A stretch of 64,000 bases of DNA from Escherichia phage UPEC06, in sequence record MW250786; one strand, 5' to 3'. The notes below the pieces were generated by a model that worked only from the letters and a program-made list of their open reading frames with translations, made no database searches and had not been told where the DNA came from. Shown here one piece after another: positions 4,085 through 51,572 of the stretch; positions within the stretch are counted from its first letter, which is position 1; the number at the start of each line of letters is the position of its first letter. The translations under genes were made by a program, and so were the position numbers.

Positions 4085-5227
4085 TTATTCCGGCAATTCC
4101 AGAACAGAGAAAGTCAGAACCTGTGTCGTTCCGTAGCCAGGCAACAACTGTGTTGCCTGTGCACCCTGACCAACACCGTACAGAACCCCTCTGTCCAAGT
4201 AGTAGTTTATAGAATATTCAGACTTTATTGAAGAATACTCCCCACCGTAAGGTACAACAGGATCTAGGGCCGTAAACACCGCATAAGTAGGTTGGAAAGT
4301 AGTCCCTACACCTTGCAAGTTCCCTGTTCCTTGTCCTGTAAAATATATTCTGCCGTTAGGGTGTTCAACACGGGCAGAGTAATGGCTGATATATATCTTA
4401 GGTCTTGAAGGCATATTGGAGAGTACCAGTGTTGGTGAGAGAATTGACACGTTCGCGGTACTATTGGTCCCTAAACTTTTGTTAGTGTCCCTCCCCTGAG
4501 CATAGATATGATATGCCCCACTTGCCTCCACAATCCTGAAAAATCCATAGGTTGTTGCAACTATATCAACCACTGTTCCACTTACGTTACTCTGCCTCAT
4601 CCACGTTGTAGAGTTAGTCGTCGTTCCATTCTGACCGTAAGCAGACTCTCCTGCTACATAAACTTCCCCTGTTTTAGTCAGAAGGTAGGACGTATCATAA
4701 GTTGCCCAATCAAGATCTATTTTTTCAACATTCTTAAAATCCGTCCTCAATGTCAGAGTTCTCACAACAGCAGTAGTCCCAACACCTAATCCACCCCTGT
4801 TATTAGTCCCGCACATTGCATACTGCCCATCTTCGAATACAACGGCAACGTTACGATAACTCATGACCACTTGTTTAATAGAGAGTCCAGCAGGGATAGG
4901 CATATCCACTGTAACATCCGTCAGGGTATTTAGTGTTGTACCAAAGCCAGTGTTAAAATACTGGTTAAACCCCATAAACAACCACCTATCTGCGGTTGTC
5001 CTTGCAAGAACAGAAGCCGATGCAGTCCACACATCTGCAATATTTGTTGCCAAGTACCTCCAAGTGTTCACAGTGGAACTCGTACCACTGAAATATTGGC
5101 TACCACGACCATAAAGATTACCAGACTTCATAAGAACAACGATACCCGACTGTCCGGCAGCGAATTTCTTAACTTTACCCTCTACCTCGGGTAGTTCACC
5201 AATGCCTAAGTTCATCATTTCTAACAT
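4085..5227 (-). CDS. RCC1-like repeat (predicted beta-propeller) protein, paralog A
   Basis: Starts MLEMMNLG; recurring G-x-h-Y-x-x-G-x-x-x-G-x-G repeats; AAGGA RBS before the ATG at 5227. Confidence 0.65.
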   Translation of the reverse strand: MLEMMNLGIGELPEVEGKVKKFAAGQSGIVVLMKSGNLYGRGSQYFSGTSSTVNTWRYLATNIADVWTASASVLARTTADRWLFMGFNQYFNTGFGTTLNTLTDVTVDMPIPAGLSIKQVVMSYRNVAVVFEDGQYAMCGTNNRGGLGVGTTAVVRTLTLRTDFKNVEKIDLDWATYDTSYLLTKTGEVYVAGESAYGQNGTTTNSTTWMRQSNVSGTVVDIVATTYGFFRIVEASGAYHIYAQGRDTNKSLGTNSTANVSILSPTLVLSNMPSRPKIYISHYSARVEHPNGRIYFTGQGTGNLQGVGTTFQPTYAVFTALDPVVPYGGEYSSIKSEYSINYYLDRGVLYGVGQGAQATQLLPGYGTTQVLTFSVLELPE

Positions 5228-5236
5228 AATTTTTCC

Positions 5237-6370
5237 TTATTCAAGTCCAGTAAGGTCCAGTGGTACATAGGTTGTCTGGTCTGTTGTGTATCCAGGTAAT
5301 TTACCTGTAGAAGCGCCACCAGATCCATACAAAATTCCATCTTCTGCCAGAACGTAAGTGTTTGTATAATTACCTCTTTGAAATATTTGACCCCATAACG
5401 GACTTGCTGTAGTGGTTATTCTAGTAATACCGTAGTACGTCTGAGTTCCCAATCCCCAGCCTGTCCCCTCAGTCCTCCCCGTAATACCGATATTGTTATT
5501 TATTCTCCTCACAAGACCTTGGGCGAGAGGGTAAAACCCGTAAGCGGGTGAATAAACACTGCTTGTGACTACAGATATGTCAGTTACAGTTGCAACAGTA
5601 GATGCTGCACCTAATGACCCAGATGCGTTGCTACCTAAGCCAAGTATCAATTCATCCCTGTCTGTGCGTGAGCCTGAAATATACACGCACTCATATCCAG
5701 TCTTTAATGCAAGTGGTGCTGAGTTTATTGGGTTTGGTATTCTAACAAAAGAGGTCCTTTGGCCTGTCCCGTTGGAAGAAGAAAACTTAGAGTAAGCCCC
5801 GTTTCCACATCCGTATACATCACCCCCACTTATAATCCAGGTAGTAACTGAAGTATCCAATATTGCAACATCTTTAATACCCAACGAAGTATTGGGTGGT
5901 TCAACATAAGTTAAATTCGGGACTGAAGTATTGGAACCTAAGCCTAAATGGGGGCCTGATCCCGCAACTGCCAGAGTATTATCTGTATAAAGGAAAGCGA
6001 TCGCATTAGCACCCATTTCTATTTTTCTTATCGGCTTATTGATTGCCATTACCTTAGCCGTTACGTCAACGGGCGTATTCTCTACTCTAGGTACGAAGAA
6101 GTTATACCCTGTAATAAACCACGATCCCCCTTTTGTTTTGAACAAGAGCGAAGCTTGCCCAGCCCAGAAGTCATCTACACCAGATGAAACCAACGTCCAT
6201 TCTCTCGTAGTAGCACCTATGCCAGATAAGTTTGCATTTGTAGGTGATATCGAGTACAGATTCCCAGCTTCACTAAGCAAGTGAATACTTTCACTTGCTG
6301 TGATATCGAACTTTTTCAACTTAAATGGGACCTTACCTGCCGCGCCGGATAAATTTAACATCTCTAACAT
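5237..6370 (-). CDS. RCC1-like repeat (predicted beta-propeller) protein, paralog B
   Basis: Internal ATG at 6370 gives MLEMLNLSG; GGAGAA RBS; same repeat architecture as its neighbours. Confidence 0.65.
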   Translation of the reverse strand: MLEMLNLSGAAGKVPFKLKKFDITASESIHLLSEAGNLYSISPTNANLSGIGATTREWTLVSSGVDDFWAGQASLLFKTKGGSWFITGYNFFVPRVENTPVDVTAKVMAINKPIRKIEMGANAIAFLYTDNTLAVAGSGPHLGLGSNTSVPNLTYVEPPNTSLGIKDVAILDTSVTTWIISGGDVYGCGNGAYSKFSSSNGTGQRTSFVRIPNPINSAPLALKTGYECVYISGSRTDRDELILGLGSNASGSLGAASTVATVTDISVVTSSVYSPAYGFYPLAQGLVRRINNNIGITGRTEGTGWGLGTQTYYGITRITTTASPLWGQIFQRGNYTNTYVLAEDGILYGSGGASTGKLPGYTTDQTTYVPLDLTGLE

Positions 6371-6383
6371 TTTATTCTCCTTA

Positions 6384-7583
6384 TTAGTACCAAGGCATAC
6401 TAGCCATGAGGCGCATAGGTGTAACACTGGTCCCTCCATCAGGGAGTGTCCATCCACTTGCTGTTCTACCACCTGCGGCAAACAATTGATAATCTTCAGT
6501 TAAGATAAATGATCGTACATAATCTTTAGCCACCCCAATAACCTTTTTATCTCCGAAGGTTGCAGGTTTGTACATATCCACATAGTTATATACCGATGTA
6601 TAACTTACACCATCACCCACTTGACCTGATCCGTTTTCACCACCGTTTTTGATAGTGTTTCTCCCGAAACAAATGATCGGAGCACCCGTTGCATCACCTG
6701 TTTGGATACCTGATGGATATAATAAATCACCCTCCGGTAAGTTTCCACTCAAGGCATCGTTTTTTATAGGTCGCAGGACCGTTCCTGCGTTGTTAAATGA
6801 ACCCGTTCCCGCAGAACCTTGAGTATTCAAACCGCTCCAATACACGTCTCCATTTTGCATTATTCTCCAAGTACATACCGTAGCAACAATTATGTTTTTA
6901 ACACCCGAAGTAACCAATGTTGGAGTTTGTAAGTGACTGTTAAGAGCACCTAGACCACTTTCCCCGTAAGCATCGTACCCTGCAAAGAATTCCCTGCCAT
7001 CTTCAGTTAAGAAATGAGTACCGAAAGCCCTTGTAGCCAATTGAGATATAGGCCCCATACTGGTGATCTGGACAAAGTTTGCAATCATATTTCTTGTACC
7101 ATTCCCACACTCACCATTAGAGTTAAGACCACAGCAGAAAACACGACCATCTTTTGTCAGAAGCCTACAAGATCCGCTGCCGAGCGCCAGAGTTTTTATA
7201 TCATCAGGTGTCACACCAATATTGTTAAAATGTACTGTAACTTCAGTAAAGTAAGCAACGTTACCACCACCTGTCCCCAGTGGTGGAAATGCGTTCCTGA
7301 TCCCAGCATAATAGAATTTATCATCGTTTGTTGCAACAAGTGTACTAGCCTGACCTAACCAGAAATATTTACAGTTTGAATAGATAGGTTTAAAGCTCGG
7401 TACTTCTGTTGGAATACCGTCCCCGAATCGGTATACAGGTGCATTACCATACCCGTAAAGATTGCCAGTTGGCCTGTGAAGATACATAACCACAGATTGT
7501 TGCGCCTGAATAAATTCAGGTGAGATCTCACTATCAATTGGAGGCAAAGAGGCTACAGCTCCTAAGTTCAACATCTCTAACAT
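6384..7583 (-). CDS. RCC1-like repeat (predicted beta-propeller) protein, paralog C
   Basis: ATG at 7583 gives MLEMLNLGA; GGAGAA RBS; repeats such as GRVFCCGLNSNGECGNG. Confidence 0.65.
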   Translation of the reverse strand: MLEMLNLGAVASLPPIDSEISPEFIQAQQSVVMYLHRPTGNLYGYGNAPVYRFGDGIPTEVPSFKPIYSNCKYFWLGQASTLVATNDDKFYYAGIRNAFPPLGTGGGNVAYFTEVTVHFNNIGVTPDDIKTLALGSGSCRLLTKDGRVFCCGLNSNGECGNGTRNMIANFVQITSMGPISQLATRAFGTHFLTEDGREFFAGYDAYGESGLGALNSHLQTPTLVTSGVKNIIVATVCTWRIMQNGDVYWSGLNTQGSAGTGSFNNAGTVLRPIKNDALSGNLPEGDLLYPSGIQTGDATGAPIICFGRNTIKNGGENGSGQVGDGVSYTSVYNYVDMYKPATFGDKKVIGVAKDYVRSFILTEDYQLFAAGGRTASGWTLPDGGTSVTPMRLMASMPWY

Positions 7584-7660
7584 ACTTAATTCTCCTGTTG
7601 TTTTGGAATACCACAAAGAACCCCATAAAGAGGTTCCTTGATTTCATTATCTACTTTACT

Positions 7661-8861: not shown

Positions 8862-9073
8862 TAAATGACCTCCTCTTTAAGAATCTCACGATGACCTGCG
8901 CCGTACCATCCTTTCATCGTATTAACTACACCAACAGCCTCGCCGTATGTTTCAAATTTCGATTCTTCATGTGGGCCAATACGGACAGTTACCCAAAACA
9001 AGTTAAATACTTTACGATGAACTTCATAATGCGTTGATTCACCTTTCCGAACTTTAACGATCCGAACTTTCAT
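8861..9073 (-). CDS. hypothetical protein
   Basis: ATG at 9073 with a GGAGGG RBS; start adjusted. Confidence 0.5.
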   Translation of the reverse strand: MKVRIVKVRKGESTHYEVHRKVFNLFWVTVRIGPHEESKFETYGEAVGVVNTMKGWYGAGHREILKEEVI

Positions 9074-9269
9074 TATACCACCCTCCAAAAGTCATAAATG
9101 CTTGATCAACCATATCTTTCCACTCAGGGTAGAGAGCACAAATCATGATGTAGACCTCTTCATCAATGTCTTCACACTCCTCCATTTCCAAATACTCTAC
9201 CACAGGTATGGGCAGAAGGCAATTTATTTCTTTACCCCTGAATTTCAGACCCTTAACTAATTTTAGCAT
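9054..9269 (-). CDS. hypothetical protein
   Basis: ATG at 9269 with an AAGGA RBS. Confidence 0.5.
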   Translation of the reverse strand: MLKLVKGLKFRGKEINCLLPIPVVEYLEMEECEDIDEEVYIMICALYPEWKDMVDQAFMTFGGWYNESSDR

Positions 9270-9510: not shown

Positions 9511-9970
9511 CCAACCCTGGTTTCAGTTTTGGAAGATCTCTTATAAACTCAGGATAGAGGACATTAACGAAGTCAATCTCATCATCTGTGGGTTTTTGAA
9601 TATCTTCGAAATACTCGTCAAGATTGAATATCTGCCAATCCTTACACCCTGCCTTTCGGACACCCATGAAGATTTCATTGTTACAGGTGGCCATCCAGGA
9701 GATCCTAGATCCTTTACCATTCGCATTCGGCAATGTTGAAACACAGAAGCGTGGTACTTCCCGAACCTTAAAATCCTTGTCATAGTATCCGCGACCACGT
9801 TGAAATTTAAACTTGGTCTTTCCCACTCTTTGACTAATCTTCATGTCACGGCGAAAGCTGTGGTCAGAGGTATAGATGAGTTGACGAAGATACTGAGTAT
9901 GTCTGATCTTTTTCCAATTCCAATCTCGAATGAGTATTTCATAGACTTCCTTAAATGCTTCATACGCCAT
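9467..9970 (-). CDS. hypothetical protein
   Basis: Internal ATG at 9970 avoids overlap with the upstream gene. Confidence 0.5.
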   Translation of the reverse strand: MAYEAFKEVYEILIRDWNWKKIRHTQYLRQLIYTSDHSFRRDMKISQRVGKTKFKFQRGRGYYDKDFKVREVPRFCVSTLPNANGKGSRISWMATCNNEIFMGVRKAGCKDWQIFNLDEYFEDIQKPTDDEIDFVNVLYPEFIRDLPKLKPGLDEIHKELRWRFGGY

Positions 9971-10199
9971 CGGGGGATTCCTTATCGAGAGCACCAACAA
10001 TCTCAAACTTTGCTACGCCAAGGACAACCACATGACCTAGGGATTGTACGCCTGTCCACGGAGTACCATTCTTCTTAGATCGCTTACCAACCACATCGCA
10101 GAAATCATTCCGAAGTTCTGTTGCATCAAACAATTCACCTTTTGGAAAAACTTCTTTAAAATCAGCAATCACGTTCAGACATTTCAGTTTCATATTCAA
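9960..10199 (-). CDS. hypothetical protein
   Basis: 79-aa ORF. Confidence 0.45.
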   Translation of the reverse strand: MNMKLKCLNVIADFKEVFPKGELFDATELRNDFCDVVGKRSKKNGTPWTGVQSLGHVVVLGVAKFEIVGALDKESPDGV

Positions 10200-10536
10200 A
10201 CACCCCTCTCTCTAATCTTTGTTTGGCAAGTAACTCCCTCTGTGCTCTAAGCGGCATCCTGAAAAATATTACAACATTCTCCAAATCCGCTGCCCGTTTT
10301 TTAAGCCCTTTGGTAAATTTACCTTCCCGCTTAATTGCATCGTAGATACCTCTGTACTCCTCTTCGACAGAGTTATCTTCAAATATCCGGTTAGCGATCA
10401 TACTGTCGATCTCCATCCCGAGAGCTTCAAAGCCGTACCAGTCTACATGTTCTTCTGTAACGGGACCTCTCTCCTTGTACACTTGTCCCGTAACTTCGTT
10501 AATTACAATCGTCGTCATTTTCGTACCTTCTTGCAT
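10162..10536 (-). CDS. hypothetical protein (paralog of the adjacent gene; shared FFRMP motif)
   Basis: C-terminal FFRMPLRAQ and an MEIDSM..FEDNSVEEE segment resemble the neighbour. Confidence 0.5.
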   Translation of the reverse strand: MQEGTKMTTIVINEVTGQVYKERGPVTEEHVDWYGFEALGMEIDSMIANRIFEDNSVEEEYRGIYDAIKREGKFTKGLKKRAADLENVVIFFRMPLRAQRELLAKQRLERGVFEYETEMSERDC

Positions 10537-10813
10537 TATACGGCATCCTGAAGAAGTTTAGAAGGTTGTAGATAGCAGCAACCCTCTCTTTTATCTTTTC
10601 GTCTAAGAAGATATCAGGTCCCTTGCTACAAAGTTCAAAATCTATATCTTCCCACTCATCAACCACAGATCCGTCTTCAAAAACTCCCTTTTCATACATC
10701 ATCCTGATCTCCATCTCCATCCCCTTGAATATTGAAAAAGTAACATCCTCAGGATGAAGGTACTGCACGTTATCTATAAACAATCCCCTACGTGGGTATA
10801 TGACCATGTGCAA
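10499..10813 (-). CDS. hypothetical protein (paralog of the adjacent gene; shared FFRMP motif)
   Basis: C-terminal FFRMPYNAR and an MEIRMM..FEDGSVVDE segment. Confidence 0.5.
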   Translation of the reverse strand: MHMVIYPRRGLFIDNVQYLHPEDVTFSIFKGMEMEIRMMYEKGVFEDGSVVDEWEDIDFELCSKGPDIFLDEKIKERVAAIYNLLNFFRMPYNARRYENDDDCN

Positions 10814-10931
10814 AATAATCCTCCTATGTTCAATATAAGCCCCACAGAAGCGATTTTGACGAGGTTTTCTTAAGAGAATGATAAATCACCTTACCTCGTC
10901 GTAGACCTCGTTAGAATCGTTCTGAGGGCGT

Positions 10932-11186
10932 TTAAATCATGCCTAGCAAATTCATCTCTTTTAACAACCCTTCTTTAGTAGAGTTGAACAGAACTGGCTT
11001 ACCTTCTTCTGGCTCATTGAAGAAGATTTCATGAGTCTCATTATCTATCTTCTCCATCTCTTTTACTACTTCCCCTGACAAAAAGATATCACTACCTTTT
11101 AAACCAGGAAACATCAAAAGAATTGCGGTTTTCGCATCTGTTGCCCAACCCTGACCACCATCTAGACTGAATATCTTAATCATCAT
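10932..11186 (-). CDS. hypothetical protein
   Basis: Internal ATG at 11186 with a GGAGG RBS. Confidence 0.45.
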   Translation of the reverse strand: MMIKIFSLDGGQGWATDAKTAILLMFPGLKGSDIFLSGEVVKEMEKIDNETHEIFFNEPEEGKPVLFNSTKEGLLKEMNLLGMI

Positions 11187-11484
11187 TTTCCTCCAAATTA
11201 GCCAGTGCAGTTCTGACTTCAAGAAGAGTTGCCGACCTTGACTCGTTTCTTTCTGAGAAATCACGAATCATCATCTTGTACTTCATTTCTTCTTCAGCAC
11301 GGAGAATCTTCTGTTCGATCAACTTGTAAACTTTGCCCGCTCTTTCTGGAAACAACGCTGCAAAGAGATTCCAGTCTTCCAATCGACCTTCGTAAGACTC
11401 TCCAGAGGTAAAGTACCGATCTCTTTCGATGCTGTCAACAAAATAATAACCGAATTCACCATAACGCCAAGTTTCATTTTTCAT
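11176..11484 (-). CDS. hypothetical protein (paralog of 11646-11885)
   Basis: Shared motif ERDRYFTSGESYEGRLEDW versus ERDREEYFTSQTTEGRAEDW. Confidence 0.5.
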   Translation of the reverse strand: MKNETWRYGEFGYYFVDSIERDRYFTSGESYEGRLEDWNLFAALFPERAGKVYKLIEQKILRAEEEMKYKMMIRDFSERNESRSATLLEVRTALANLEENDD

Positions 11485-11642
11485 TTGATGTACCGAGCAG
11501 CAGCCGTACCGATAAGGAAGCCAGCAGGAACTGCGACAATAATAGCTTCAATCATTTTGAGATCTGCTGCAACACATGCTGCACCAACAACAACAGAACC
11601 CGCCCAGATAGCAATTACACGTTTCAAAAATTTGGTATTCAT
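11481..11642 (-). CDS. small membrane protein (53 aa), below the ORF-track length cutoff
   Basis: ATG at 11642 with a GGAGA RBS; hydrophobic segments; ATGA overlap with the downstream start. Confidence 0.4.
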   Translation of the reverse strand: MNTKFLKRVIAIWAGSVVVGAACVAADLKMIEAIIVAVPAGFLIGTAAARYIK

Positions 11643-11645
11643 TCG

Positions 11646-11885
11646 TTAGTCTCCTGATTTTGTTAAGTTTTCTTTTATTTTTACGTATTCGATTAAAGAT
11701 TTTGCGAGATCACCATCGATTTTCTCACAAACCATGAGTATCTCTCTTACCTTTTCGGGATGAACAGATTCATAGAATTTCCAATCCTCTGCTCTCCCTT
11801 CTGTGGTTTGGGAAGTGAAGTATTCTTCTCTATCCCGCTCCGGTAAGAGATAATATACAAGACTCAGCTTCCTCTCGTCAACCAT
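11646..11885 (-). CDS. hypothetical protein (paralog of 11176-11484)
   Basis: Shared YFTS..EGR.EDW motif. Confidence 0.5.
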   Translation of the reverse strand: MVDERKLSLVYYLLPERDREEYFTSQTTEGRAEDWKFYESVHPEKVREILMVCEKIDGDLAKSLIEYVKIKENLTKSGD

Positions 11886-11894
11886 TTTATCACC

Positions 11895-12266
11895 TTATTC
11901 GTAAAAAAGTTTATCAGCTTGTTCATTCAACCAACCTTGTCGAAAAGCCCCCTTGAGGACCTCTGCCCACTTTGGATTTGCAGCCTCTAAGAGAAGTATC
12001 TCTTCTTTCTCTATGTTCATAGGATCAGCAAAGAAATCTAAGATTTGCTCGTTGAAGACACCCTCTATCAAAATCCCTTTATATTTCAACGTCAAACGTT
12101 TTACCATAAAACCTTGAGATATTGCTCCCTCCCTATCAATTGTCGTAGTTGGGGGATTTGGAATAGGAAAACCCGTCATAGGTAATGGCGATGCACCTGT
12201 CTTCACAAAGGTATTCCCTCCGGTATTATTGAAGAAACCTTTCACATTTTTATCGTACAATGACAT
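11895..12266 (-). CDS. hypothetical protein
   Basis: 123-aa ORF. Confidence 0.5.
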   Translation of the reverse strand: MSLYDKNVKGFFNNTGGNTFVKTGASPLPMTGFPIPNPPTTTIDREGAISQGFMVKRLTLKYKGILIEGVFNEQILDFFADPMNIEKEEILLLEAANPKWAEVLKGAFRQGWLNEQADKLFYE

Positions 12267-12705
12267 TTTCTACCCTCTCTTGAATTTTTATCTCTGCCTC
12301 ATCTAAAGCTTCCCCCATTGCAAGGATATACCTTGAAATTTCAGGGAACAACGCTTCAAACATCTCTATCTCCTCTTCAAGTATATCCGTTGGATCGAGG
12401 AAATACTCTTCAAGGACTATTCGCTTTGTCCCGCTTTTGTTGCCATAAGTAACAAAAACGAAACGATCCGGTTTTCCAATGGAATCTTTGGAGGTTCTCC
12501 ATTGAAAAAGATGCCTGTTTGAACTTATGTTTATTCTTTTGTCAGCCTTGTCCAACGGGATTCTGAAACTTACGGATGCTGACATTCCTTCAGATTGGGT
12601 CCACTTCTCACTCCTCTTAAAAATGTTGTTACGGTATCTGTTTTTACCCAAGGCATTAAAAGTCCACTGCCTGCTCAATCTCTCGATTATCTCTTTAGTT
12701 TTCAA
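12250..12705 (-). CDS. hypothetical protein
   Basis: 151-aa ORF. Confidence 0.5.
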   Translation of the reverse strand: MKTKEIIERLSRQWTFNALGKNRYRNNIFKRSEKWTQSEGMSASVSFRIPLDKADKRINISSNRHLFQWRTSKDSIGKPDRFVFVTYGNKSGTKRIVLEEYFLDPTDILEEEIEMFEALFPEISRYILAMGEALDEAEIKIQERVENVIVR

Positions 12706-13253
12706 AATGGTATGTCCTCGTCAACAATAAATTTTATAGCATTCTTTACAGCAGCTTTGTTCAGATGTTGAACACGCTGGAAGAACATTGGGTTCAAGTC
12801 AAGAAGAATATCATCATCCCCATACAACGCCGTGAAAAGATCGAGTTCTTCATCTGTCGGGTGGGACGGGTTTTCAAACAAGTCCTCAAACACAACCTGG
12901 GCCTCATTTCTTTTAGCTAATGTGGTTGAGTCACGATAGATATTTAATACCGTGTACACATCATCTACGCTCAGGATTTTGACACATTCCAGTTCTCCTG
13001 TGTTTCCATCAAGATACAAAGTTATTGCAGGAGTTGACCAATTTGATTCAGATATCGCATAAACGTAGATGCTTTTGCGATTACCAACTGCAACAGACTC
13101 TTCAATTTTCTTTTCTGCTGCCTTAAAGAAAGGCTGGTGCTTGATCCAATGATCCCAACCAATCCAACGAGCACCTTTACCATACGCATTCAGTACATGA
13201 TTTTCAATGTTACGTTTACTCATTAAAACCCCCAAAAAAGAAAAGCCAGCCAC
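12702..13253 (-). CDS. hypothetical protein
   Basis: 183-aa ORF. Confidence 0.5.
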   Translation of the reverse strand: MAGFSFLGVLMSKRNIENHVLNAYGKGARWIGWDHWIKHQPFFKAAEKKIEESVAVGNRKSIYVYAISESNWSTPAITLYLDGNTGELECVKILSVDDVYTVLNIYRDSTTLAKRNEAQVVFEDLFENPSHPTDEELDLFTALYGDDDILLDLNPMFFQRVQHLNKAAVKNAIKFIVDEDIPF

Positions 13254-13275
13254 CTTTCGGTGACTGGCCTGAAGT
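13243..13275 (-). terminator. Putative intrinsic terminator
   Basis: Hairpin gccagccacc-tttc-ggtgactggc (one G-U pair) followed by a U-run on the minus transcript. Confidence 0.5.
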
Positions 13276-13742
13276 TAGCTATTAATCACCACGAATGCAG
13301 TAACTATAGCATACAGAAATCCAATTGCAACAAAAATTATCATAATGGGGTCAGAGGTTACTCGCTTAAGTTTTCCTACGAAAGTTGATCTGTATTTGTG
13401 TTCCTTCTCCATCTTGTTTATCAAAATGATGAAAGAGTTGACATGAATATCTTCAGCGTTCTCTGCAAAGGGTGTGTACTTGAACGTACCTTCTGTGTTT
13501 GCAATAAAGCTGCGATGATACTTTTTACCGTCATAACTTTCTATAAGAAGACCATCCTTTGTCACCCGATAACTGACTGAACGGAACTTGTCATAAAAAA
13601 CGTATGCCCTGAATCCATCCTGATCGGGAACAGCCCTTCTGACGTAACCGTCAAAAAACTCCAATCTCTTTCCAGAATTCAGTTCCAAATTGTCAGCTAA
13701 CATAGGGAGTTGACTTACATATGTAAAGTACATAATGATCAC
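13275..13742 (-). CDS. hypothetical protein with a C-terminal TM segment
   Basis: 155-aa ORF; C-terminal IMIIFVAIGFLYAIVTAFVVI. Confidence 0.5.
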   Translation of the reverse strand: MIIMYFTYVSQLPMLADNLELNSGKRLEFFDGYVRRAVPDQDGFRAYVFYDKFRSVSYRVTKDGLLIESYDGKKYHRSFIANTEGTFKYTPFAENAEDIHVNSFIILINKMEKEHKYRSTFVGKLKRVTSDPIMIIFVAIGFLYAIVTAFVVINS

Positions 13743-13934
13743 CCTTCCACTAAGCTGAAATCATTTTATCATATTATGAAAAAATACAACAGCGAAGATC
13801 GGTCATGAACACTATGTTGTTAATTTTTACAACAAGACTTCAAAAAAGTATTTAAATCACTTAAATCGATTTTAATACATAGAAAATACCTATGGACCAG
13901 ATCTGACCCATAGGCTGTACCTTAATGTGAAATT

Positions 13935-14513
13935 TTATTCATTTCCCCGATATTTTTGAATCGCGATCGAAGTCCTTGGTTCAGCCAGGCCAGTTCCGTA
14001 TGCATACCATTTACCAGTGAGTGTTTTTCGAGCACCGTAGGACCCAATCTCCATATCGTCACAATAAACATCGTAACCGATCGGAGTCTTAACTAAAAAG
14101 AGTACGTCACGAGGAATCCCTAAGAGGGTAAACATCGATATGGCATCTTTTGCGATCTCGTGAGAAATCTTCTCTGCATTCTTTTTACTACTGGCACTTC
14201 TAAACAGTTCCATCTTTAAGAAGATATTGAAATGAATATCATCAAGAACCATCTCATCACGAAAGCATGGAGTCACAGCCATCCAACTGCCATCTTCCAA
14301 CTTCCCCTCTTTGTCGAGTTGAAGGAATGATTGCTCTGCGGAAGCCACTGCATATTTCCCGTTCTGGACAATGCGAAGATCAGTAACATCTTCAGGGCAT
14401 GTATGATCCATAGCATCATCATCCACATAGCTTGGGACAACCTTATCATTGAAACCTTTACATTTCCACCAACTATGGGCATCAATAAACAATGTGAAGT
14501 CAATGTTTGACAT
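13935..14513 (-). CDS. hypothetical protein with class II aaRS-like motifs (tentative)
   Basis: FRDE (motif-2-like) and GTGLAEPR (motif-3-like) about 100 aa apart; ATG at 14513. Confidence 0.45.
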   Translation of the reverse strand: MSNIDFTLFIDAHSWWKCKGFNDKVVPSYVDDDAMDHTCPEDVTDLRIVQNGKYAVASAEQSFLQLDKEGKLEDGSWMAVTPCFRDEMVLDDIHFNIFLKMELFRSASSKKNAEKISHEIAKDAISMFTLLGIPRDVLFLVKTPIGYDVYCDDMEIGSYGARKTLTGKWYAYGTGLAEPRTSIAIQKYRGNE

Positions 14514-14514
14514 T

Positions 14515-15018
14515 TTAGCCTCGCTTACCATTCTGGAATGCACGTTTAGTGATTTTTGACATAACCATCAGGTCTTCCAGTGAAGTGCTCGGATGATGCT
14601 TATTCAGGTAGGCTTCCATAGCACCGACCAGATCAGAAAGCTCTACCAACTCCATGATCTTGCATTTTTGTTTGGCTGCATCCTTAAGTTCATCAAGTTC
14701 TTCTTGAATCTTAGTGATCTCTCCAAGTTCTCCACGAGGGAAAGTATCCAGATGATAGCCAGGTTTTTGTTCTTCGATCTCTTCATGTCCGACAACACGA
14801 AATTTTCCAGCAGCTAAACGCCAAACACCTTCGAAATACACAATGTATTCTAAAGACTCCACAATAAAGATGGTATCGAAATTTTTAAATTTAAAAAATC
14901 CTTCGACAAGATTGTCCTCTGTACTGAAACTTCCGAAGAAGTTGAGTTCTTGCTCCGTATGAAATTCGATAACCTTATTTTCGTTATGGAGTTTCGTCAG
15001 TAATTTTAAAATTTTCAT
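14515..15018 (-). CDS. protein with a C-terminal MazG-like NTP pyrophosphohydrolase domain (tentative)
   Basis: EITKIQEELDELKDAAK...ELVELSDLVGAMEAYL pattern typical of all-alpha MazG/HisE; ATG at 15018 with an AGGAGAGGA RBS. Confidence 0.4.
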   Translation of the reverse strand: MKILKLLTKLHNENKVIEFHTEQELNFFGSFSTEDNLVEGFFKFKNFDTIFIVESLEYIVYFEGVWRLAAGKFRVVGHEEIEEQKPGYHLDTFPRGELGEITKIQEELDELKDAAKQKCKIMELVELSDLVGAMEAYLNKHHPSTSLEDLMVMSKITKRAFQNGKRG

Positions 15019-15031
15019 TTTTCCTCTCCTC

Positions 15032-15520
15032 TTATGGGCAACACCGTGGAGATCTCCCACAAAAGAATTGCCAATTGGTTTCTGAATCTTTGTAATTTAC
15101 AAATCCTATCCTTCCGCACCCTTGTCCACTACAAACAGCCTCACGAGGATGATAGTCTATGCTACAAGAGTGTGGATGGTCAAATGCTTCTCGTATTTCA
15201 ACACACAATCGGCTTAACCAATCGAACATTTTTGGCATAGAAGCCTCAAGAAGTTTAAGTTCATCGATCGTAGGTTTATCTTTCTCAAGGAAGAAGTCGT
15301 CTATCTCCGAAAACAAAATAACGTTTTGAACTATCCCGTCAGTTACCTTGTAAGAGAACTCATCAGTAAGTCTCACAGTAACTTCCTCTATCAGTTCTTT
15401 TTCATTATCCTGGTCTTTTGCCAACCTTTCTTCAATCCACCGGATAACGAAGAATCTTTCTCGCTGAACATCCATGTTCAGAGTATTAATTATTTTTTCA
15501 TAGATTAGGTTTCCTTCCAT
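15032..15520 (-). CDS. hypothetical protein (Cys-rich C-terminus)
   Basis: 162-aa ORF. Confidence 0.45.
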   Translation of the reverse strand: MEGNLIYEKIINTLNMDVQRERFFVIRWIEERLAKDQDNEKELIEEVTVRLTDEFSYKVTDGIVQNVILFSEIDDFFLEKDKPTIDELKLLEASMPKMFDWLSRLCVEIREAFDHPHSCSIDYHPREAVCSGQGCGRIGFVNYKDSETNWQFFCGRSPRCCP

Positions 15521-16632
15521 ACCTTGTCTTGTGCCTCCAGAATAAGTTTTTCAACAATCTTCAGGTCTGTCTTCTTAGGTAAGCCCGATTGCTTATAAAG
15601 AACACTTGTAATCATTTTATCCTTTTCTTCAGCCCATTCAACAATTTCTTCATAACGGTATTCACCATTTCGGATCGCAAGAAGTTCTTCAGCGTCTGGT
15701 CGATTCACTAAAACTTTACCTTCCATAAGGATTTCTTCACCCATGCGGAGAAGTCGAACCAAGTGCATAGCATGTTTAGTGTCGTATCCGAACTTCTCTT
15801 CCAGTTCATGACGCTTCTCGTTACGATTCTTAACCCACTCCCAATAATTGTGGTGGCGTTCCTTTGCCCATCTATGATCGTCAGCACAATACTTAACAAT
15901 CATCAGGGTCTTGCCCCTTTTAACTTCCTCGGGGATTTCTTCGTAATCTAACTTACGGATGGAACCATCTTTGTTAAACATAGGTTGAACATTTTCACTA
16001 CGATCCTCTACAACGCCGTAAATGTTACCACCATAAGGAACCAAAGTACAGAAGCCTTCCATGTTTTTAAGCTTACGAACAAAGTCCTCATACTTCAACT
16101 CACCTTCTCCGAGATAGCTCTGCACCAGACGGAAATAGTCAAATTGAGTTGGTGGCTCTTTTGGTTGCGGATTATTAATGTGTTTGTTGTGACCCTTGAT
16201 CCGCTTTAACTGAGACATTGCATAACCACTGAAGCGAAATGCAACTTCACGAGACAGTAAGGAGTAGAAATGTTCTTTCATCTCTTTCCAAGCTTCGTAC
16301 TCGTACAATGTGGCTTTCGGATCAGTAAAACCCAGTTCAATGATATTTGGGTTCATCTTCGAAAACAGTTGAAGGAAAGTTCCCAATTCGTAGATCTTGG
16401 CATCCTCTTCACCAGGGATGTTTAATTCAGTAACCTCTTTGAATGGGGTACGAACCACATTTGGGGTTGCAACAAAAACCCCACGGATATCAATATCACT
16501 ACCTTCGTTATTCGTACCATACGCATGAGATCCTGCCAGACTCAACATCAGTACCTTCGCTACGTCTGGATGCTTTTCCATCTTCTCTACGATACTTTTT
16601 ACCTTTCCAGCACTCACAACTGAATTTTCCAT
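15505..16632 (-). CDS. Pol-beta superfamily nucleotidyltransferase, substrate unknown
   Basis: N-terminal GSHAYGTNNEGSDIDIRGVF matches the GS-x(9-13)-DxD NTase signature. Confidence 0.6.
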   Translation of the reverse strand: MENSVVSAGKVKSIVEKMEKHPDVAKVLMLSLAGSHAYGTNNEGSDIDIRGVFVATPNVVRTPFKEVTELNIPGEEDAKIYELGTFLQLFSKMNPNIIELGFTDPKATLYEYEAWKEMKEHFYSLLSREVAFRFSGYAMSQLKRIKGHNKHINNPQPKEPPTQFDYFRLVQSYLGEGELKYEDFVRKLKNMEGFCTLVPYGGNIYGVVEDRSENVQPMFNKDGSIRKLDYEEIPEEVKRGKTLMIVKYCADDHRWAKERHHNYWEWVKNRNEKRHELEEKFGYDTKHAMHLVRLLRMGEEILMEGKVLVNRPDAEELLAIRNGEYRYEEIVEWAEEKDKMITSVLYKQSGLPKKTDLKIVEKLILEAQDKVWKET

Positions 16633-16722
16633 TTATCCTCCAATCATGTAAGTCACACAAGCCAACCCAGTTGGCCTGTTTAATCTTTATAAAGTTTACG
16701 CAGCTTGTGCAATCTTTTTTAT

Positions 16723-17118
16723 TTATAGGCATTTCACACCATAAATGATCATCAACACAACAAGTGTCAACGTATAAAAGAAGCTCCCGTAAAGTCCATA
16801 ACTGGTAATTTTAAGTTTTTTCTTAAAGCACATCATTGTACTATAAATTACACCAGTCCAGTGAATCACTAAAATCGCGGTGGCAATATCTGAAACATTA
16901 CCCGCCCAAAGCATCAGAGAGTATGAGAGGTACATTGCAAAACCTGATAGCAAGAATGTAAACAAATAACCAATTACACTTTTCTTTTTCTGATCTACGA
17001 TTTTATTTTTCATGGTATCGATGTTCAGATTGTAATAGGCAACTGCCACTATCTGGATAATCAGCCCCAAGATAAAGAAAGAGATCAGTGTAACGTATTC
17101 AAAAATTGGTGCAGTCAT
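16723..17118 (-). CDS. multi-pass membrane protein
   Basis: 131 aa with about 4 hydrophobic helices. Confidence 0.5.
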   Translation of the reverse strand: MTAPIFEYVTLISFFILGLIIQIVAVAYYNLNIDTMKNKIVDQKKKSVIGYLFTFLLSGFAMYLSYSLMLWAGNVSDIATAILVIHWTGVIYSTMMCFKKKLKITSYGLYGSFFYTLTLVVLMIIYGVKCL

Positions 17119-17516
17119 TATAATTTCTCCTCAATAATTTCAGAAATGAGATTCGAGATCTCGAAAGTTTCTAACTCTTCGACGTGTGACAAGCGCTGGA
17201 GGCGCTCGATAACAAAGTCTTTCTTCACAAACATATCCGACAGATGCTCAATGTCCTGCTTACCACGCATTCCGCTAACCAACTGCTTGTATCGGATGAG
17301 TTCAATATACTCTTCTTTGGGCATTACTGTCAAGCGTTCATCTGCACAAATATGCAAAAATACTTGCTTGCTGTCCCAGTCGAACCCATTGTGCACTGCT
17401 TCTACTTCACGGTGAGGTGTCCCGCCAATTGTTACATGACCAACCTCAACAGGGATAGATACCTGATCATCAGGTCGGCACTGCTGCAACTCCTCAATCA
17501 ATTCAGATACTTTCAT
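17118..17516 (-). CDS. hypothetical protein
   Basis: 132-aa ORF. Confidence 0.5.
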   Translation of the reverse strand: MKVSELIEELQQCRPDDQVSIPVEVGHVTIGGTPHREVEAVHNGFDWDSKQVFLHICADERLTVMPKEEYIELIRYKQLVSGMRGKQDIEHLSDMFVKKDFVIERLQRLSHVEELETFEISNLISEIIEEKL

Positions 17517-17518
17517 AG

Positions 17519-17974
17519 TTACCCCTGTTTAAGCTTAAAAGATTTAAAGGCTTCGATAAAGTCCATTTCTTTTTGCGTGTATTTGTGGTCAATTGTATCA
17601 GCGAAAAGAGGGCAACGACCATCAACCAACTTCACATCCCACAGATGTTGAGGGAGAATAAATGCAATGGCTGTAAGTGCACCATTCAAAGAATCATTCT
17701 CCTCGCAGAAAAATGCGTAAGGAATCTTCTCTATGTTTGGAGCTAAAAATCCTTCTGCAAAATTAAGCATCTTAGATTGATAGCCTCCGTTCAACAAGAT
17801 CATTGTTTGGTCTTTGCTTTGCCACTGATCTACAAGGTTGTATCTGTCATCATATCGATCGGCATAGGCAAAGCCATAATGACCTACAAGGTTTGCTGCT
17901 GCATGTGCTGCTTGGATACCTGCTTGGATTCCCATCATGTAGCTGTTTACCAATACGTACATCCGAGTTTTCAA
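17519..17974 (-). CDS. PTH2-like peptidyl-tRNA hydrolase fold protein (tentative)
   Basis: MGIQAGIQAAHAA resembles the PTH2 GK.AAQ..HA motif; NGALTAIAF resembles the second conserved segment. Confidence 0.4.
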   Translation of the reverse strand: MKTRMYVLVNSYMMGIQAGIQAAHAAANLVGHYGFAYADRYDDRYNLVDQWQSKDQTMILLNGGYQSKMLNFAEGFLAPNIEKIPYAFFCEENDSLNGALTAIAFILPQHLWDVKLVDGRCPLFADTIDHKYTQKEMDFIEAFKSFKLKQG

Positions 17975-18291
17975 TTCTTACCTCCGAAAATTCTTTTTGC
18001 AAATTTTTCATTACCTAACGTCATGTTGTAGAAAACTATAATTGAATAGACAATCCACGCAAGGACATAAAATAAAATCAAGAAAGGCCATCCCACAAAC
18101 CAAAACACTGTCATTATTAACCAGCCCGTCATAAGGAGTTTATAATTAACATTCCCGTGATTTAAAGGGTCAAGTAAGTTACTGTTCTCTGGCAGGGTGA
18201 TACGAAACCCACCTTGACGAAGCTTGATCAAAAAGAACCAAGCAGCAGAACTTATAATGCAACATAAAATATATATCAGTAATCCTGTCAT
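17971..18291 (-). CDS. membrane protein (tandem paralog 1; LIKLRQGGF motif)
   Basis: 106 aa, 3 hydrophobic helices; homologous to the adjacent gene. Confidence 0.55.
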   Translation of the reverse strand: MTGLLIYILCCIISSAAWFFLIKLRQGGFRITLPENSNLLDPLNHGNVNYKLLMTGWLIMTVFWFVGWPFLILFYVLAWIVYSIIVFYNMTLGNEKFAKRIFGGKN

Positions 18292-18617
18292 TTTTTAACT
18301 CCGAAGATCTTAGATAGTAATTTATCATTCCCGATAGTTACACCACAAAAACTTTTTACTCCGTATACTAGATACGACCCGATTGTAACACAGATAATGA
18401 TCGGATAAACAAGATACCAAAAGAATGTTGCAAGTATCCACCCTGCCATCACCATACGTAAATTTACATTTTCGTTATTCAGTGGTTCCAGGATATAAAT
18501 ATCCTCACAATCTTTTGGGAAGGGGATATTGAACCCCTTCTGCCGTAATTTAATCAATAAGAACCAAAGTGGACAACTGATCAAACAACCTATTAAATAA
18601 CCTTCAACCATTTTCAC
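18288..18617 (-). CDS. membrane protein (tandem paralog 2; LIKLRQKGF motif)
   Basis: 109 aa; homologous to the adjacent gene. Confidence 0.55.
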   Translation of the reverse strand: MKMVEGYLIGCLISCPLWFLLIKLRQKGFNIPFPKDCEDIYILEPLNNENVNLRMVMAGWILATFFWYLVYPIIICVTIGSYLVYGVKSFCGVTIGNDKLLSKIFGVKK

Positions 18618-19945
18618 TCTCCTTCAACTTGTCAAGGTATTGTGTAACGTATCTTACTTTTACATTTCTGATTCTGCTCTTGATCTCATCTGGACGTCCC
18701 GCAAATTTTTCAGAAATCTCTTTACTTTCTTTTGAGATTGCAACACTGTTCTGAATAATACCCGCCAGTGCTGAGAATAATACCAGTGGTTGACTGTAGT
18801 TGTCAAACATTTTTTCAGGTCCACGCCCACGAGCATCACAGATGCAAGCGTCCCGCCAGTGCTGAGAATAATACCAGTGGTTGACTGTAGTTGTCAAACA
18901 TTTTTTCAGGTCCACGCCCACGAGCATCACAGATGCAAGCGTCAATAAATTCAGAAAGGAATGCTTGGTCCTTTTCACCACGTAAGGCTACCAACAAGTC
19001 ATAAACTTTCTTCGGCTTCATCTCTTTAATACGGTGAAGTCGTGTATGGTGCTCGGTCACAGCTAAAGCTAACTTCTTCCAACTGTTGGGAACACCAAAC
19101 CGATCGCAAACTTGCTCAGTCAACTTGATACCATGTTCTTCATGCCCGTGTAACTTACCTGTAACCCAATAAATGCATTTCCCTAAGTCGTGACACAATA
19201 CTGCCCACTTTACAGCCTCACTTGCACGAATGGCTTGAGCATAATCCATACAAAGTAAAGTATGAACAAATGCGTCACCTTCTGGATGGTGTTCTTTAGG
19301 TTGAACAACATCATGCAAGTCAACAAGCTCAGGGAATTCACCAAGTTGAGTCAACATACGGATCATTACCGAAGGTTTATTCATCTCCGACTGATCACTG
19401 AAGCATTTCTTAATCTCTGCAAATTTACGCTCTTTTGGAAGTGCACTTAAATCTGCATTTTGGCACATTAACCAAGTTATAGAGTCAATTATAAACTCTC
19501 CACCATATCTGGCGTAAAGTCTTGCTAGTCGGTATACACGTAAGGGGTCTTCGATAAATGCCTTAATAGATACACAACGTAACCGACGATTTTCAATATC
19601 AAGTGCACCACCGCAAGGGTCAATAATTTCACCCGTAGAAAGATCCTTAGCAATAGCATTAATGGTCAAATCTCTTCGCATCAGATCTTGCTCGATTGTA
19701 ACGTCTGGAGAGAACACAACCTCAAAGTCGTGATAACCAGGTCCTGTTGACCTTTCTGTCCTAGCAAGAGCATACTCTTCCTTTGTCTCGGGGTGAAGGT
19801 ATACAGGAAAAGCTGCACCAACTTGAGTGAATCCCTTTTCAATCATTTCTTCATGGGTCGCCCCAACTACAACGTAGTCACGATCCTTGCTTTCAACACC
19901 CATTAGTTCATCCCTCACTTGCCCACCAACAGCATATATTTTCAT
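18604..19945 (-). pseudogene. cca: tRNA nucleotidyltransferase (CCA-adding enzyme, class II, HD domain), reading frame broken by the 91-bp duplication
   Basis: N-terminal GGQVRDELMG..DRD motif; the two ORF-track ORFs (18836-19975 and 18604-18981) share the peptide ACICDARGRGPEKMFDNYSQPLVLFSALAG; removing one repeat copy restores one ~426-aa ORF. Confidence 0.6.
18761..18942. repeat. Exact tandem direct duplication of a 91-bp unit (18761-18851 and 18852-18942) inside the CCA-adding enzyme gene
   Basis: Read directly: identical 91-nt strings back to back; 91 is not a multiple of 3. Confidence 0.9.
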
Positions 19946-20280
19946 ACTCTTTCCCCTCTTAAGTTTAAAGACCAATCTTTTATTTCTTCTTTCCAGTTTG
20001 TATTTCTCTTAATGTCTTGCTTTTGACCACGAAGATAGTTGATGATTTCAAGCGGGTCTTGCTTAACAAAAGAAATATTATCGATCGGACACTCAACTAA
20101 CTTAAGCATCCTTTCAAAACGATTATACTCATCTTCTGACTTCGGTGCAACAGGAATAATATCATAATCTTCAAGATTGTCGAGAGTTTCAAGAGTTTCA
20201 AGAGTAACCTTCATCTCATAGCCTTCTAATCTCTTTGTCTTGATACCAAACACTCTTCGAAAGTAAATGTAATATTTCAT
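19942..20280 (-). CDS. hypothetical protein
   Basis: ATG at 20280 with an AGGAGAA RBS; ATGA overlap with the cca start. Confidence 0.5.
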   Translation of the reverse strand: MKYYIYFRRVFGIKTKRLEGYEMKVTLETLETLDNLEDYDIIPVAPKSEDEYNRFERMLKLVECPIDNISFVKQDPLEIINYLRGQKQDIKRNTNWKEEIKDWSLNLRGERV

Positions 20281-20877: not shown

Positions 20878-21723
20878 TTATTTTCCCCCTTCTTTCGCCG
20901 CAGTGATGATCTGTTCAATCAACTCGTCGCGATAATAAACGTACTGTTCAACACCAAAACATTCCGCAATCTCGTCTAGTTCGTCGAGGTTGTACTCGTC
21001 AAAGTCTCGTGGGTTAAGAGTAAAGATGTTGAATTTTTTGGCGTAGCCTTCGTCGAGGACGATTTCAAACTCTCCTTCTCCGATTTCTTTCGCATCATCA
21101 ACATCACCCGATTCGATTGCCCCTTCAACCTTAATCCCCCCTGTATTTTGTTGATCGGCTTCCATTTGCTTTTTAATTGCTTCATCTTCAGCGGTCAGAC
21201 GGGCTTGCATCTGAGAGGAAGTAAAGTAAATTTCGCCAGCACGATCAAACAGTTCAACGAGTTCATCTTCTGTCATAACACCCTTGTACAGATCGTAGTA
21301 TTTCTCTTTGAACAGGTCTTTGTAGAAATCGCTACGTTTAAATACCAGTGCCGAGTCACCGCCCATACTCATCTGAACGTTGTGGAACATGTAATGAGAA
21401 CCTGGACGACAAATTCGAACATGACCGGATAAGAAGATCATTGTTGCAGCACTTGCCACTTCACCAATACCGTGTGTTACAACAGTCGCCTTTGTTTCAG
21501 AGATCGCTGTCATGTACATATCGGCGATATCACAATAACCACCACAAGAAGTAATGTACAGATTTACAATATCACCTTCAGGTGCTGAACGAATCAGGTC
21601 AACAGCCTCGATATGTGCTTCAGGTGAATTGTGCAGATCCGTAACATAAATACGCCAATCGTTAGAAGTTACTGGAGACACCCAAATGTTTTTTGCCGGA
21701 CCATTCATTACGATTTCTTCCAT
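20878..21723 (-). CDS. ClpP-like serine protease (S14 fold) with an acidic C-terminal extension
   Basis: Colinear with ClpP: TSCGG (cf. NSPGG), GEVASAATMIFLSG (cf. GQAASMGAFLL), MFHNV (cf. MIHQP). Confidence 0.6.
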   Translation of the reverse strand: MEEIVMNGPAKNIWVSPVTSNDWRIYVTDLHNSPEAHIEAVDLIRSAPEGDIVNLYITSCGGYCDIADMYMTAISETKATVVTHGIGEVASAATMIFLSGHVRICRPGSHYMFHNVQMSMGGDSALVFKRSDFYKDLFKEKYYDLYKGVMTEDELVELFDRAGEIYFTSSQMQARLTAEDEAIKKQMEADQQNTGGIKVEGAIESGDVDDAKEIGEGEFEIVLDEGYAKKFNIFTLNPRDFDEYNLDELDEIAECFGVEQYVYYRDELIEQIITAAKEGGK

Positions 21724-50846: not shown

Positions 50847-51140
50847 ATGCCAGTAAAATGGAAGTATACTTTTATTAACTGGTTAACTAATATGAAAAAC
50901 TTTAAACTTGCACTGGAATACGGTGCTGCTGGATACGTAACGGAAGAGTATATCGATATCTTTGACAGCTATGACGAAGCCTTTGATGAAGGTAACGACA
51001 TTGCTTTTGAGAGTACAGGCTTTTCTCTGGAGTGCTGGAAAAAGATTGACTTTGGGAAAGGAAATCGAATATACTTCTTCTACCCCAACGAGGGTGACTT
51101 AACTTCTCGTTATAAGATGACTTTTATGGAGGCAAAATGA
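50847..51140 (+). CDS. hypothetical protein
   Basis: ORF with its first ATG at 50847. Confidence 0.45.
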   Translation: MPVKWKYTFINWLTNMKNFKLALEYGAAGYVTEEYIDIFDSYDEAFDEGNDIAFESTGFSLECWKKIDFGKGNRIYFFYPNEGDLTSRYKMTFMEAK

Positions 51141-51361
51141 AATTTAGCATTACACTGAACTTTACCGTAGACAAGTCTAATGAAACTCTTGCTAAAGAGA
51201 TGAAAGAAGCTGCTGAACGTCAAGGTAGTACAGTTGAAGAACTCTACAAGACATTTCCACAGCAATTCCTTCATGGTTTTGTAGAACAGTTCCCTAATGA
51301 CGATTCTGAGTTTCCTGGGTTAACTACCGAAGTTACTGTTTCGGAGATCACCAATGACTAA
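51137..51361 (+). CDS. hypothetical protein
   Basis: 74-aa ORF with an ATGA overlap to the upstream gene. Confidence 0.45.
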   Translation: MKFSITLNFTVDKSNETLAKEMKEAAERQGSTVEELYKTFPQQFLHGFVEQFPNDDSEFPGLTTEVTVSEITND

Positions 51362-51572
51362 GCAAGTTGTAGAACTTAAGGTAACTTATGAGATTGACTA
51401 CACCAACGAAGATATGGCAGAGATGTTAAAAGCTAAGATGGAAAAATCCGGCTTGAGCATCGAAGAAATTTTCGAAGCTGTAGAAAAAGAACTCATCGAA
51501 GGAACTCTCGAATCGATGGAGTTGGAGTGCAAAACTCTACCTGGTTTCAGTGTCGGCGTTGTTAAACTGTAA
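51354..51572 (+). CDS. hypothetical protein
   Basis: 72-aa ORF. Confidence 0.45.
   Translation: MTKQVVELKVTYEIDYTNEDMAEMLKAKMEKSGLSIEEIFEAVEKELIEGTLESMELECKTLPGFSVGVVKL

Follow-up and report, generated by a model that had tools for sequence, protein, structure and literature searches.

We have analyzed a 64,000-nucleotide (nt) stretch of Escherichia phage UPEC06 DNA (record MW250786; here called the window), in which six small open reading frames (ORFs) form three pairs of related genes. All six lie on the minus strand, which carries the genes of the window from ~1 to 50 kb. Pair 1 comprises 10162-10536 and 10499-10813, pair 2 comprises 11176-11484 (2a) and 11646-11885 (2b), and pair 3 comprises 17971-18291 (3a) and 18288-18617 (3b). 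The phage is a large virulent myophage of E. coli, of the genus Septuagintavirus (Vequintavirinae). Its region 10000-19000 is 93-95% identical to those of phages A73, W70, A7_1, A5-4 and LTH01, and in the A73 and A5-4 records nearly all the genes of the region carry the label 'hypothetical protein'. For comparison we used the syntenic blocks of the Certrevirus phages CR9, CR3 and phiTE, and of the Seunavirus PVP-SE1.

The preliminary description of this DNA had recognized the pairs by motifs shared between their members, and these are present at the quoted sites in all six ORFs: GMEI..FED.SV and FFRMP in pair 1, ERDR(0-2 amino acids)YFTS...EGR.EDW in pair 2, and LIKLRQ(G/K)GF in pair 3. For ORFs of such small size, one of which (10162-10536) is unannotated in A73 and A5-4, it might be argued that the motifs are a chance or compositional likeness between spurious reading frames. 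This is already refuted by the comparisons that follow, and we assign it a negligible probability. When the 431 ORFs of the window (at least 40 amino acids) are all searched against each other, the three pairs are recovered, and pairwise alignment by BLASTP finds significant similarity extending far beyond the motifs, with E = 3e-10 and 32% identity across 92 amino acids for pair 1, E = 6e-10 and 35% across 46 for pair 2, and E = 2e-30 and 41% across 103 for pair 3. Smith-Waterman scores lie 14.6, 13.0 and 39.6 standard deviations above those of composition-preserving shuffles for pairs 1, 2 and 3, respectively, and the observed score was attained by none of 2000 shuffles for every pair. The ORFs are unbroken in A73 and A5-4, and comparison with these two phages gives ratios of non-synonymous to synonymous substitution rates (dN/dS) of 0.04-0.30, with many synonymous changes and few non-synonymous ones. 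The six ORFs are real genes. No repeat was found at the DNA level between the paralogous copies; the duplications are therefore old, and recent gene conversion between the copies is excluded. On the evidence of these alignments the three pairs are true paralogs and old duplicates, the proteins of the three pairs being unrelated to each other.

The downstream gene of pair 1 (10162-10536) has a probable corrected start at 10518, giving an acidic, soluble protein of 118 amino acids with an isoelectric point (pI) of 4.9. The upstream gene (10499-10813) probably begins at 10807 and encodes an acidic protein of 102 amino acids (pI 4.4), equivalent to A73_242. The dN/dS ratio is 0.06-0.11 for the downstream copy and 0.14 for the upstream copy. 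Among 5.8e9 database proteins the 10499 protein has relatives in two clusters only, both from Septuagintavirus, and pair 1 matches no PHROG family. A hidden Markov model (HMM) made from the pair finds exactly one ORF in each of the three Certrevirus phages compared: gp193 of CR9 (E = 0.003), gp175 of CR3 and phiTE_115 (E = 0.08). These matches outscore all decoys but one, the phiTE match falling slightly short of the top decoy (E = 0.076). The three share one slot, directly upstream of the ortholog of 9960-10199, and comparison of the pair 1 profile with that of the gp193 group using hhalign gives Prob 72% and E = 3.3e-5. Pair 1 would thus be a small acidic soluble protein limited to the Septuagintavirus/Certrevirus clade. 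We note separately that the 10162-10536 ORF is conserved and constrained, yet there is no coding sequence annotated for it in the A73 and A5-4 records (L001 3175-3537; L008 ~11169-11519).

The proteins of pair 2, like those of pair 1, are hydrophilic and acidic (pI 4.4-4.9 over the two pairs). The pairs had been described as adjacent genes, which holds for pairs 1 and 3, but the members of pair 2 are separated by another gene, 11481-11642 on the minus strand, encoding a 53-amino acid protein with two transmembrane (TM) segments and a dN/dS of ~0.02. Its positional counterpart in CR9 is the small-TM ORF CR9_21888_22061, the likeness being one of position and of inspection by eye, without alignment. 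The 2a protein (102 amino acids, acidic) is the positional ortholog of CR9 gp200 and CR3 gp183, and hhalign comparison of pair 2 with these proteins gives Prob 94% and E = 1.4e-7. The gene order is conserved, with a family gene followed by the small TM gene, gp200 (= 11176) and the gp198 ortholog. Since this order matches 11176 to gp200, the 2b gene (79 amino acids), which lies upstream of the small TM gene, is the extra copy. A broad homolog search with the 11176 protein returned one cluster only, and the pair matches phrog_15823 weakly. The AlphaFold2 (AF2) model of the 11176 protein is all-helical, with one long helix over residues 46-100, at a mean predicted local distance difference test score (pLDDT) of 77.

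Both genes of pair 3 encode small proteins predicted to have three TM helices. The 3a protein (106 amino acids) is a basic, putative inner-membrane protein and is the conservative copy. The divergent copy, 3b, probably starts at 18611, giving 107-109 amino acids; its gene overlaps 3a by 4 nt and also overlaps the 3' end of the gene for a CCA-adding enzyme (18604-19975, minus strand). Both proteins match phrog_17692 over its full length, 3a with E = 1.5e-32 (its residues 4-106 aligning to positions 3-107 of the 107-position profile) and 3b with E = 3.6e-21. A tblastn search finds the gene in 28 phage records, in two places in five Septuagintavirus records and in one place in the 23 others. In the window the order is CCA enzyme, 3b, 3a and then a hydrolase (17519-17974), and the order CCA enzyme, membrane gene, hydrolase is kept in CR9 and CR3. 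The correspondence of pair 3 with CR9 gp216 is well supported by the alignments. The identity of gp216 is 55% to 3a and 39% to 3b, and that of 3b to the CR3 protein is 34%; the divergence of pair 3 is asymmetric, with one copy evolving faster. Two other candidates for hidden paralogs of pair 3, CR9 gp214 (annotated 'membrane protein') and PVP-SE1 gp161, were rejected, as the membrane HMM detects neither.

These comparisons demonstrate, at the level of sequence, that each pair corresponds to one Certrevirus gene and that both copies are under purifying selection. The local duplication and divergence that had been proposed for these genes is thus borne out. We consider it probable that the pairs are duplications, in the Septuagintavirus lineage, of genes that are single-copy in Certrevirus. 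The copies have since diverged deeply, and their products would act through a binding or scaffold mechanism. The genes would belong to the accessory portion of the genome, where turnover is fast. By duplication the phage would leave one copy on the original partner, with the other free to track a variant or a second partner. Because none of the proteins has an enzymatic signature, those of the pairs, and of a wider family discussed below, would most likely act by binding in a non-enzymatic manner.

For pair 3 the layout of the protein offers some guidance. There is one N-terminal TM helix followed by a 39-residue hydrophobic hairpin, and the conserved segments are the loop after the first TM helix (LIKLRQ.GF…L[DE]PLN..NV) and a basic tail (T[IL]GN[ED]K…[RK]IFG.K). 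By the positive-inside rule both should be cytoplasmic. The slot that the gene occupies, flanked by the CCA enzyme and the hydrolase, is also informative. In phiTE there is only an unannotated 50-amino acid remnant of the membrane gene (19775-19927) and the adjacent hydrolase is missing, while in PVP-SE1 the slot is occupied by an unrelated 72-amino acid protein with two TM segments (10386-10604). It seems from this that some small membrane protein is needed in the slot, whatever its sequence. We propose that translation of pair 3 is coupled to that of the CCA-adding enzyme within a cluster of tRNA/RNA-repair genes. Because its conservation is predicted to face the cytoplasm and its genes are tightly linked to those for the CCA enzyme and the PTH2-like hydrolase, pair 3 could be a membrane-associated partner or regulator of the module formed by these two enzymes.

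The preliminary description had suggested a different role for the membrane pair, that of superinfection exclusion. On this view 17971 and 18288 encode proteins made early that block entry of competitor DNA in the manner of T4 Imm, the two diverged copies covering different competitors. There is some basis for this. T4 Imm and Sp, and other small exclusion proteins, resemble pair 3 in their small size, basic character and multiple TM segments, and in having genes that lie outside the structural module; the gene has been duplicated and has diverged with both copies kept; and its reduction to a remnant in phiTE is the behavior of a dispensable accessory gene. However, pair 3 has no sequence relation to Imm or Sp, no Pfam model including that of Imm matching at E <= 0.1, and phrog_17692 has no assigned function. 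Moreover, the best-conserved segments of pair 3 are predicted to face the cytoplasm, and in every Certrevirus record that has the gene it is flanked by those for the CCA enzyme and the PTH2-like hydrolase in one overlapping arrangement, a fixed linkage to tRNA-repair genes that exclusion would not need. The predicted cytoplasmic conservation and the linkage thus argue mildly against an Imm-like action, and an injection blocker acting in the periplasm would fit slightly less well than a partner of the CCA enzyme and hydrolase. We regard exclusion as unlikely.

The genes of pair 2 are located inside an array of other genes that share a C-terminal module, a family around the pair that the preliminary description did not record. 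At least five further genes of the window (9467, 11895, 12250, 12702 and 15032) carry this module behind N-terminal parts that are unrelated. It follows approximately the pattern [YF]F.D..(P)T.EE[IL].[LF][FL]E.LYPE, with a strand 'L.Y.GI' before it and a long amphipathic helix after it, at its end. An iterative HMM search seeded with 12250 covered every ORF of the window and of CR9, CR3 and phiTE, with five-fold shuffled decoys added. The 21 proteins that it collected are all encoded by the syntenic block, on its coding strand, and no decoy was admitted. An independent HMM of 63 columns was built from Certrevirus sequences only, for which the best decoy has E = 3.

The members in the window are all encoded on the minus strand. 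The 9467-10006 gene (phrog_12307; start 9970) encodes 167 amino acids and is orthologous to CR9 gp192 (HMM E = 4e-6). The 11895-12266 protein has 123 amino acids with a Gly/Pro-rich N-terminal part (E = 2e-6). That of 12250-12705 (phrog_12686) has 151 amino acids and is the ortholog of CR9 gp203 (E = 9e-6); its AF2 model comprises three helices and a six-stranded sheet followed by the helical module, with pLDDT 72 and a predicted template modeling score (pTM) of 0.70. The gene 12702-13253 (phrog_12009; start 13223) encodes 173 amino acids and corresponds to CR9 gp204 (E = 1e-5). Finally 15032-15520 (phrog_12113; ortholog CR9 gp210) encodes a protein of 162 amino acids with a Cys/His-rich tail (E = 4e-3, and 0.0012 in the iterative search). 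A possible further member is 9054-9269, also on the minus strand, with 71 amino acids including ...DEEVYIMICALYPEW, recognized by eye and from alignments only, without HMM support. The 9467, 12250, 12702 and 15032 proteins match their own PHROGs at E = 1e-20 to 1e-40, so that the proteins are split by PHROGs into separate families labeled 'unknown function', of which only 12307 and 12686 cross-match. Pair 3 and the module proteins have matches in the Certrevirus-like families phrog_17692, 12307, 12686, 12009 and 12113, but the shared C-terminal module is unrecorded there.

The content of the family differs by genus. CR9 has ~8 members, with gp201, gp202, gp205 and gp206 where the window has 11895 alone, and PVP-SE1 has the single candidate gp172 (E = 1.7e-4). 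The family profile finds eight clusters by word-index search and 10 in an exhaustive search of 1.84e9 representatives. As judged from these searches, the family is a narrow one with birth-and-death turnover, confined to Certrevirus- and Septuagintavirus-like phages. In its logic it can be compared with the T4 internal proteins IPI, IPII and IPIII, which share a 10-amino acid N-terminal capsid-targeting peptide and are otherwise variable. In both cases small proteins that are otherwise unrelated have one conserved terminal segment and turn over between relatives, but here the shared part is C-terminal, ~60 amino acids in length and helical, the proteins show no sign of packaging into virions or of processing by a protease, and the comparison is one of logic only. 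In CR9 we also observe that gp202 and gp194 (20951-21391 and 23843-24349) contain collagen-like Gly-X-Y (GXY) runs of ~6-11 triplets directly before the module.

Is pair 2 itself part of this family? The gp200 group compared with the family using hhalign gives Prob 80% and E = 1.4e-5, and the merged profile of pair 2 and gp200 gives E = 9e-4 and Prob 22%. When an HMM of pair 2 and gp200 is used for searching, the next match is 12250 (E = 0.003), followed by 9467 (E = 0.095), both of which outrank every decoy. Taken with the evidence set against it below, these profile comparisons make membership of pair 2 probable rather than assured. Pair 2 would be a small, acidic, helical protein that is probably a minimal form of the module family. 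By contrast pair 1, which was considered as a divergent member, was rejected on the basis of its comparison with the family (hhalign Prob 0.1%, E = 0.66).

The module could serve in self-association or docking, as a scaffold from which the variable heads are offered to different partners. We suggest this because of the GXY runs that precede the module, collagen triple helices needing a trimerizing domain next to them, and because of the long amphipathic helix with which it ends; the AF2 models likewise have a long helix at the C-terminus. One head-bearing member points to a possible partner. The 12702-13223 protein ends in ...VDEDIPF at its free C-terminus (the last codons lying near 12705). 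The C-terminal tip of the E. coli single-stranded DNA-binding protein (SSB) is DDDIPF, and the clients that it recruits include ExoI, RecQ, PriA and the chi subunit. The free tips are nearly identical, but the remainder of the 12702 protein differs from SSB in having no OB-fold. The DEDIPF tail is kept in A73 and A5-4, is absent from the Certrevirus orthologs, and occurs in no other ORF of the window or of the loci compared. From this resemblance the tail may mimic that of SSB and engage the host enzymes that are SSB clients, and the 12702 protein would then dock onto such proteins through it. Extending this reading further, the family might constitute a modular set of phage effectors, in which a common self-associating or docking domain is combined with interchangeable heads for different host factors, including the SSB-tip mimic and the collagen-like and zinc-binding parts, with turnover by birth and death and with pair 2 as a bare-module regulator or competitor. 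We offer this only as a speculation of low probability.

The GXY runs of CR9 gp202 and gp194 could also be read in another way. The module proteins, pair 2 among them, might be minor virion or assembly proteins, with the module a signal for trimerization or incorporation. A neighboring gene in CR3, gp194, has the annotation 'virion structural protein', as does PVP-SE1 gp170, and there are matches to chains or models of that description at E = 0.3-0.5 and E = 0.19. However, these matches are below significance, and the module genes lie among those of nucleotide metabolism and RNA repair, far from the plus-strand block beyond 50 kb that we assume to be structural. In addition, a structural survey of phiTE does not include gp113, gp123-125 or gp129 (PMC11972413). 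A virion role is thus very unlikely, and we retain the docking scaffold as the preferred reading.

Searches of libraries and folds for a function gave little. No pair protein has a Pfam match, the membrane pair having none at E <= 0.1, including to the model for T4 Imm. The six pair proteins and four members of the module family have no match at E <= 0.1 in PADLOC-DB, whose models are of known components of anti-phage defense. A sequence profile search of the PDB produced no meaningful match; the sole match with E < 0.001 was to a designed 'Bagel' repeat protein, which was disregarded as no stretch of it passes alone. A Foldseek search of the PDB found nothing, and the Polo-box domain fold (PLK4 PB3 and PLK1 PBD), though listed among the nearest comparisons, is not a convincing fold match. 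The only significant matches in a fold search of BFVD are module-family members of phiTE and CR9. The families of these proteins in PHROGs are labeled 'unknown function'. The roles in host takeover, anti-defense and superinfection exclusion that had been suggested for the pairs are plausible priors for such genes, but are guesses.

A number of points weigh against our interpretation of the pairs as lineage-specific duplications whose products act by binding. The link of pair 1 to gp193 is weak by sequence, given the hhalign Prob of 72%, and leans on synteny. The Certrevirus-only module HMM misses pair 2, 11646 scoring at the level of the decoys (E = 3.2) and 11176 being unreported, and direct comparison of the pair 2 profile with that of the module family gives only E = 0.03. 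The predicted topology of pair 3 comes from hydropathy and the positive-inside rule only. The AF2 models are of moderate confidence (pLDDT 72-77) and are of monomers; the alignments from which they were made were shallow because few homologs were found in the broad searches. The description of the genus Septuagintavirus does not discuss paralogs or these genes (PMC11370258). Lastly, 3a is nearer to CR9 gp216 (55% identity) than to 3b (41%), which could indicate an older duplication followed by loss in Certrevirus, or a second allele acquired by recombination.

In the latter case at least one of the pairs would have had its second copy captured from a diverged relative, and the pairs would be xenologs lying side by side. 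Besides the identities of pair 3, the position of 2b, beyond an intervening gene and not directly beside 2a, would be consistent with this, as would the synonymous divergence (dS) between Septuagintavirus genomes, which varies from 0.0 to 0.9 from gene to gene and implies a mosaic history. But no donor lineage is seen. The 3b protein is no closer to its counterparts in CR3 (34%) or CR9 (39%) than to 3a, and the searches of 5.8e9 and 1.84e9 proteins yielded nothing else related to pair 1 or pair 2. Furthermore 3a and 3b have NVN and GF states in common that are absent from Certrevirus. Capture of an allele is quite unlikely on this evidence, and duplication within the Septuagintavirus lineage is the interpretation we favor.

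The pair 3 genes form part of a cluster of tRNA/RNA-repair-type genes extending over 13935-19975 on the minus strand. It includes the CCA-adding enzyme, with a PolyA_pol head and an HD domain, and the PTH2-like hydrolase (phrog_3668), both described above, together with an RlaP-family RNA-repair nucleotidyltransferase (PF10127), an aminoacyl-tRNA synthetase-like protein (phrog_4806) and a further protein, which matches phrog_6408 over its C-terminal half. The cluster may be a counter-measure to host defenses that target tRNA. A consensus scan of the coding strand placed a strong terminator-promoter pair at 20361-20306, with terminators also present at 13915-13888 and at 13270-13243; promoter-like sites in the scan are not more frequent than in shuffled sequence. 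Within the CCA tRNA nucleotidyltransferase gene there is a perfect tandem duplication of 91 nt (18761-18851 and 18852-18942), which shifts the frame and divides the gene into two ORFs. Removal of one copy restores a 426-amino acid ORF, which aligns collinearly with the intact 430-amino acid enzyme of A73 at 94% identity. The duplication is either a real inactivating mutation or an artefact of assembly.

The pattern of duplication seen here is ordinary accessory-gene evolution in large virulent phages, and leaves current concepts unchanged. Retained lineage-specific duplicates under selection mark genes of active phage innovation, and because of this the duplicates are sensible first targets for knock-out and defense-inhibition screens, in a genus that is under consideration for therapy. 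The module family, previously undescribed, unites several PHROGs of 'unknown function' and provides two handles for such work, the ~60-amino acid module and the member with the putative SSB-tail mimic.

The window contains other tandem duplicates. Three paralogous genes on the minus strand (4085-5227, 5237-6481 and 6384-7616) encode proteins of ~380-414 amino acids that are related with E values down to 5e-19, and all three match phrog_4219, 'regulator of chromosome condensation', with RCC1-like repeats. There is also another small tandem pair on the plus strand, 51137-51361 and 51354-51572 (E = 5e-7), the second of which corresponds to phrog_28002, of unknown function.

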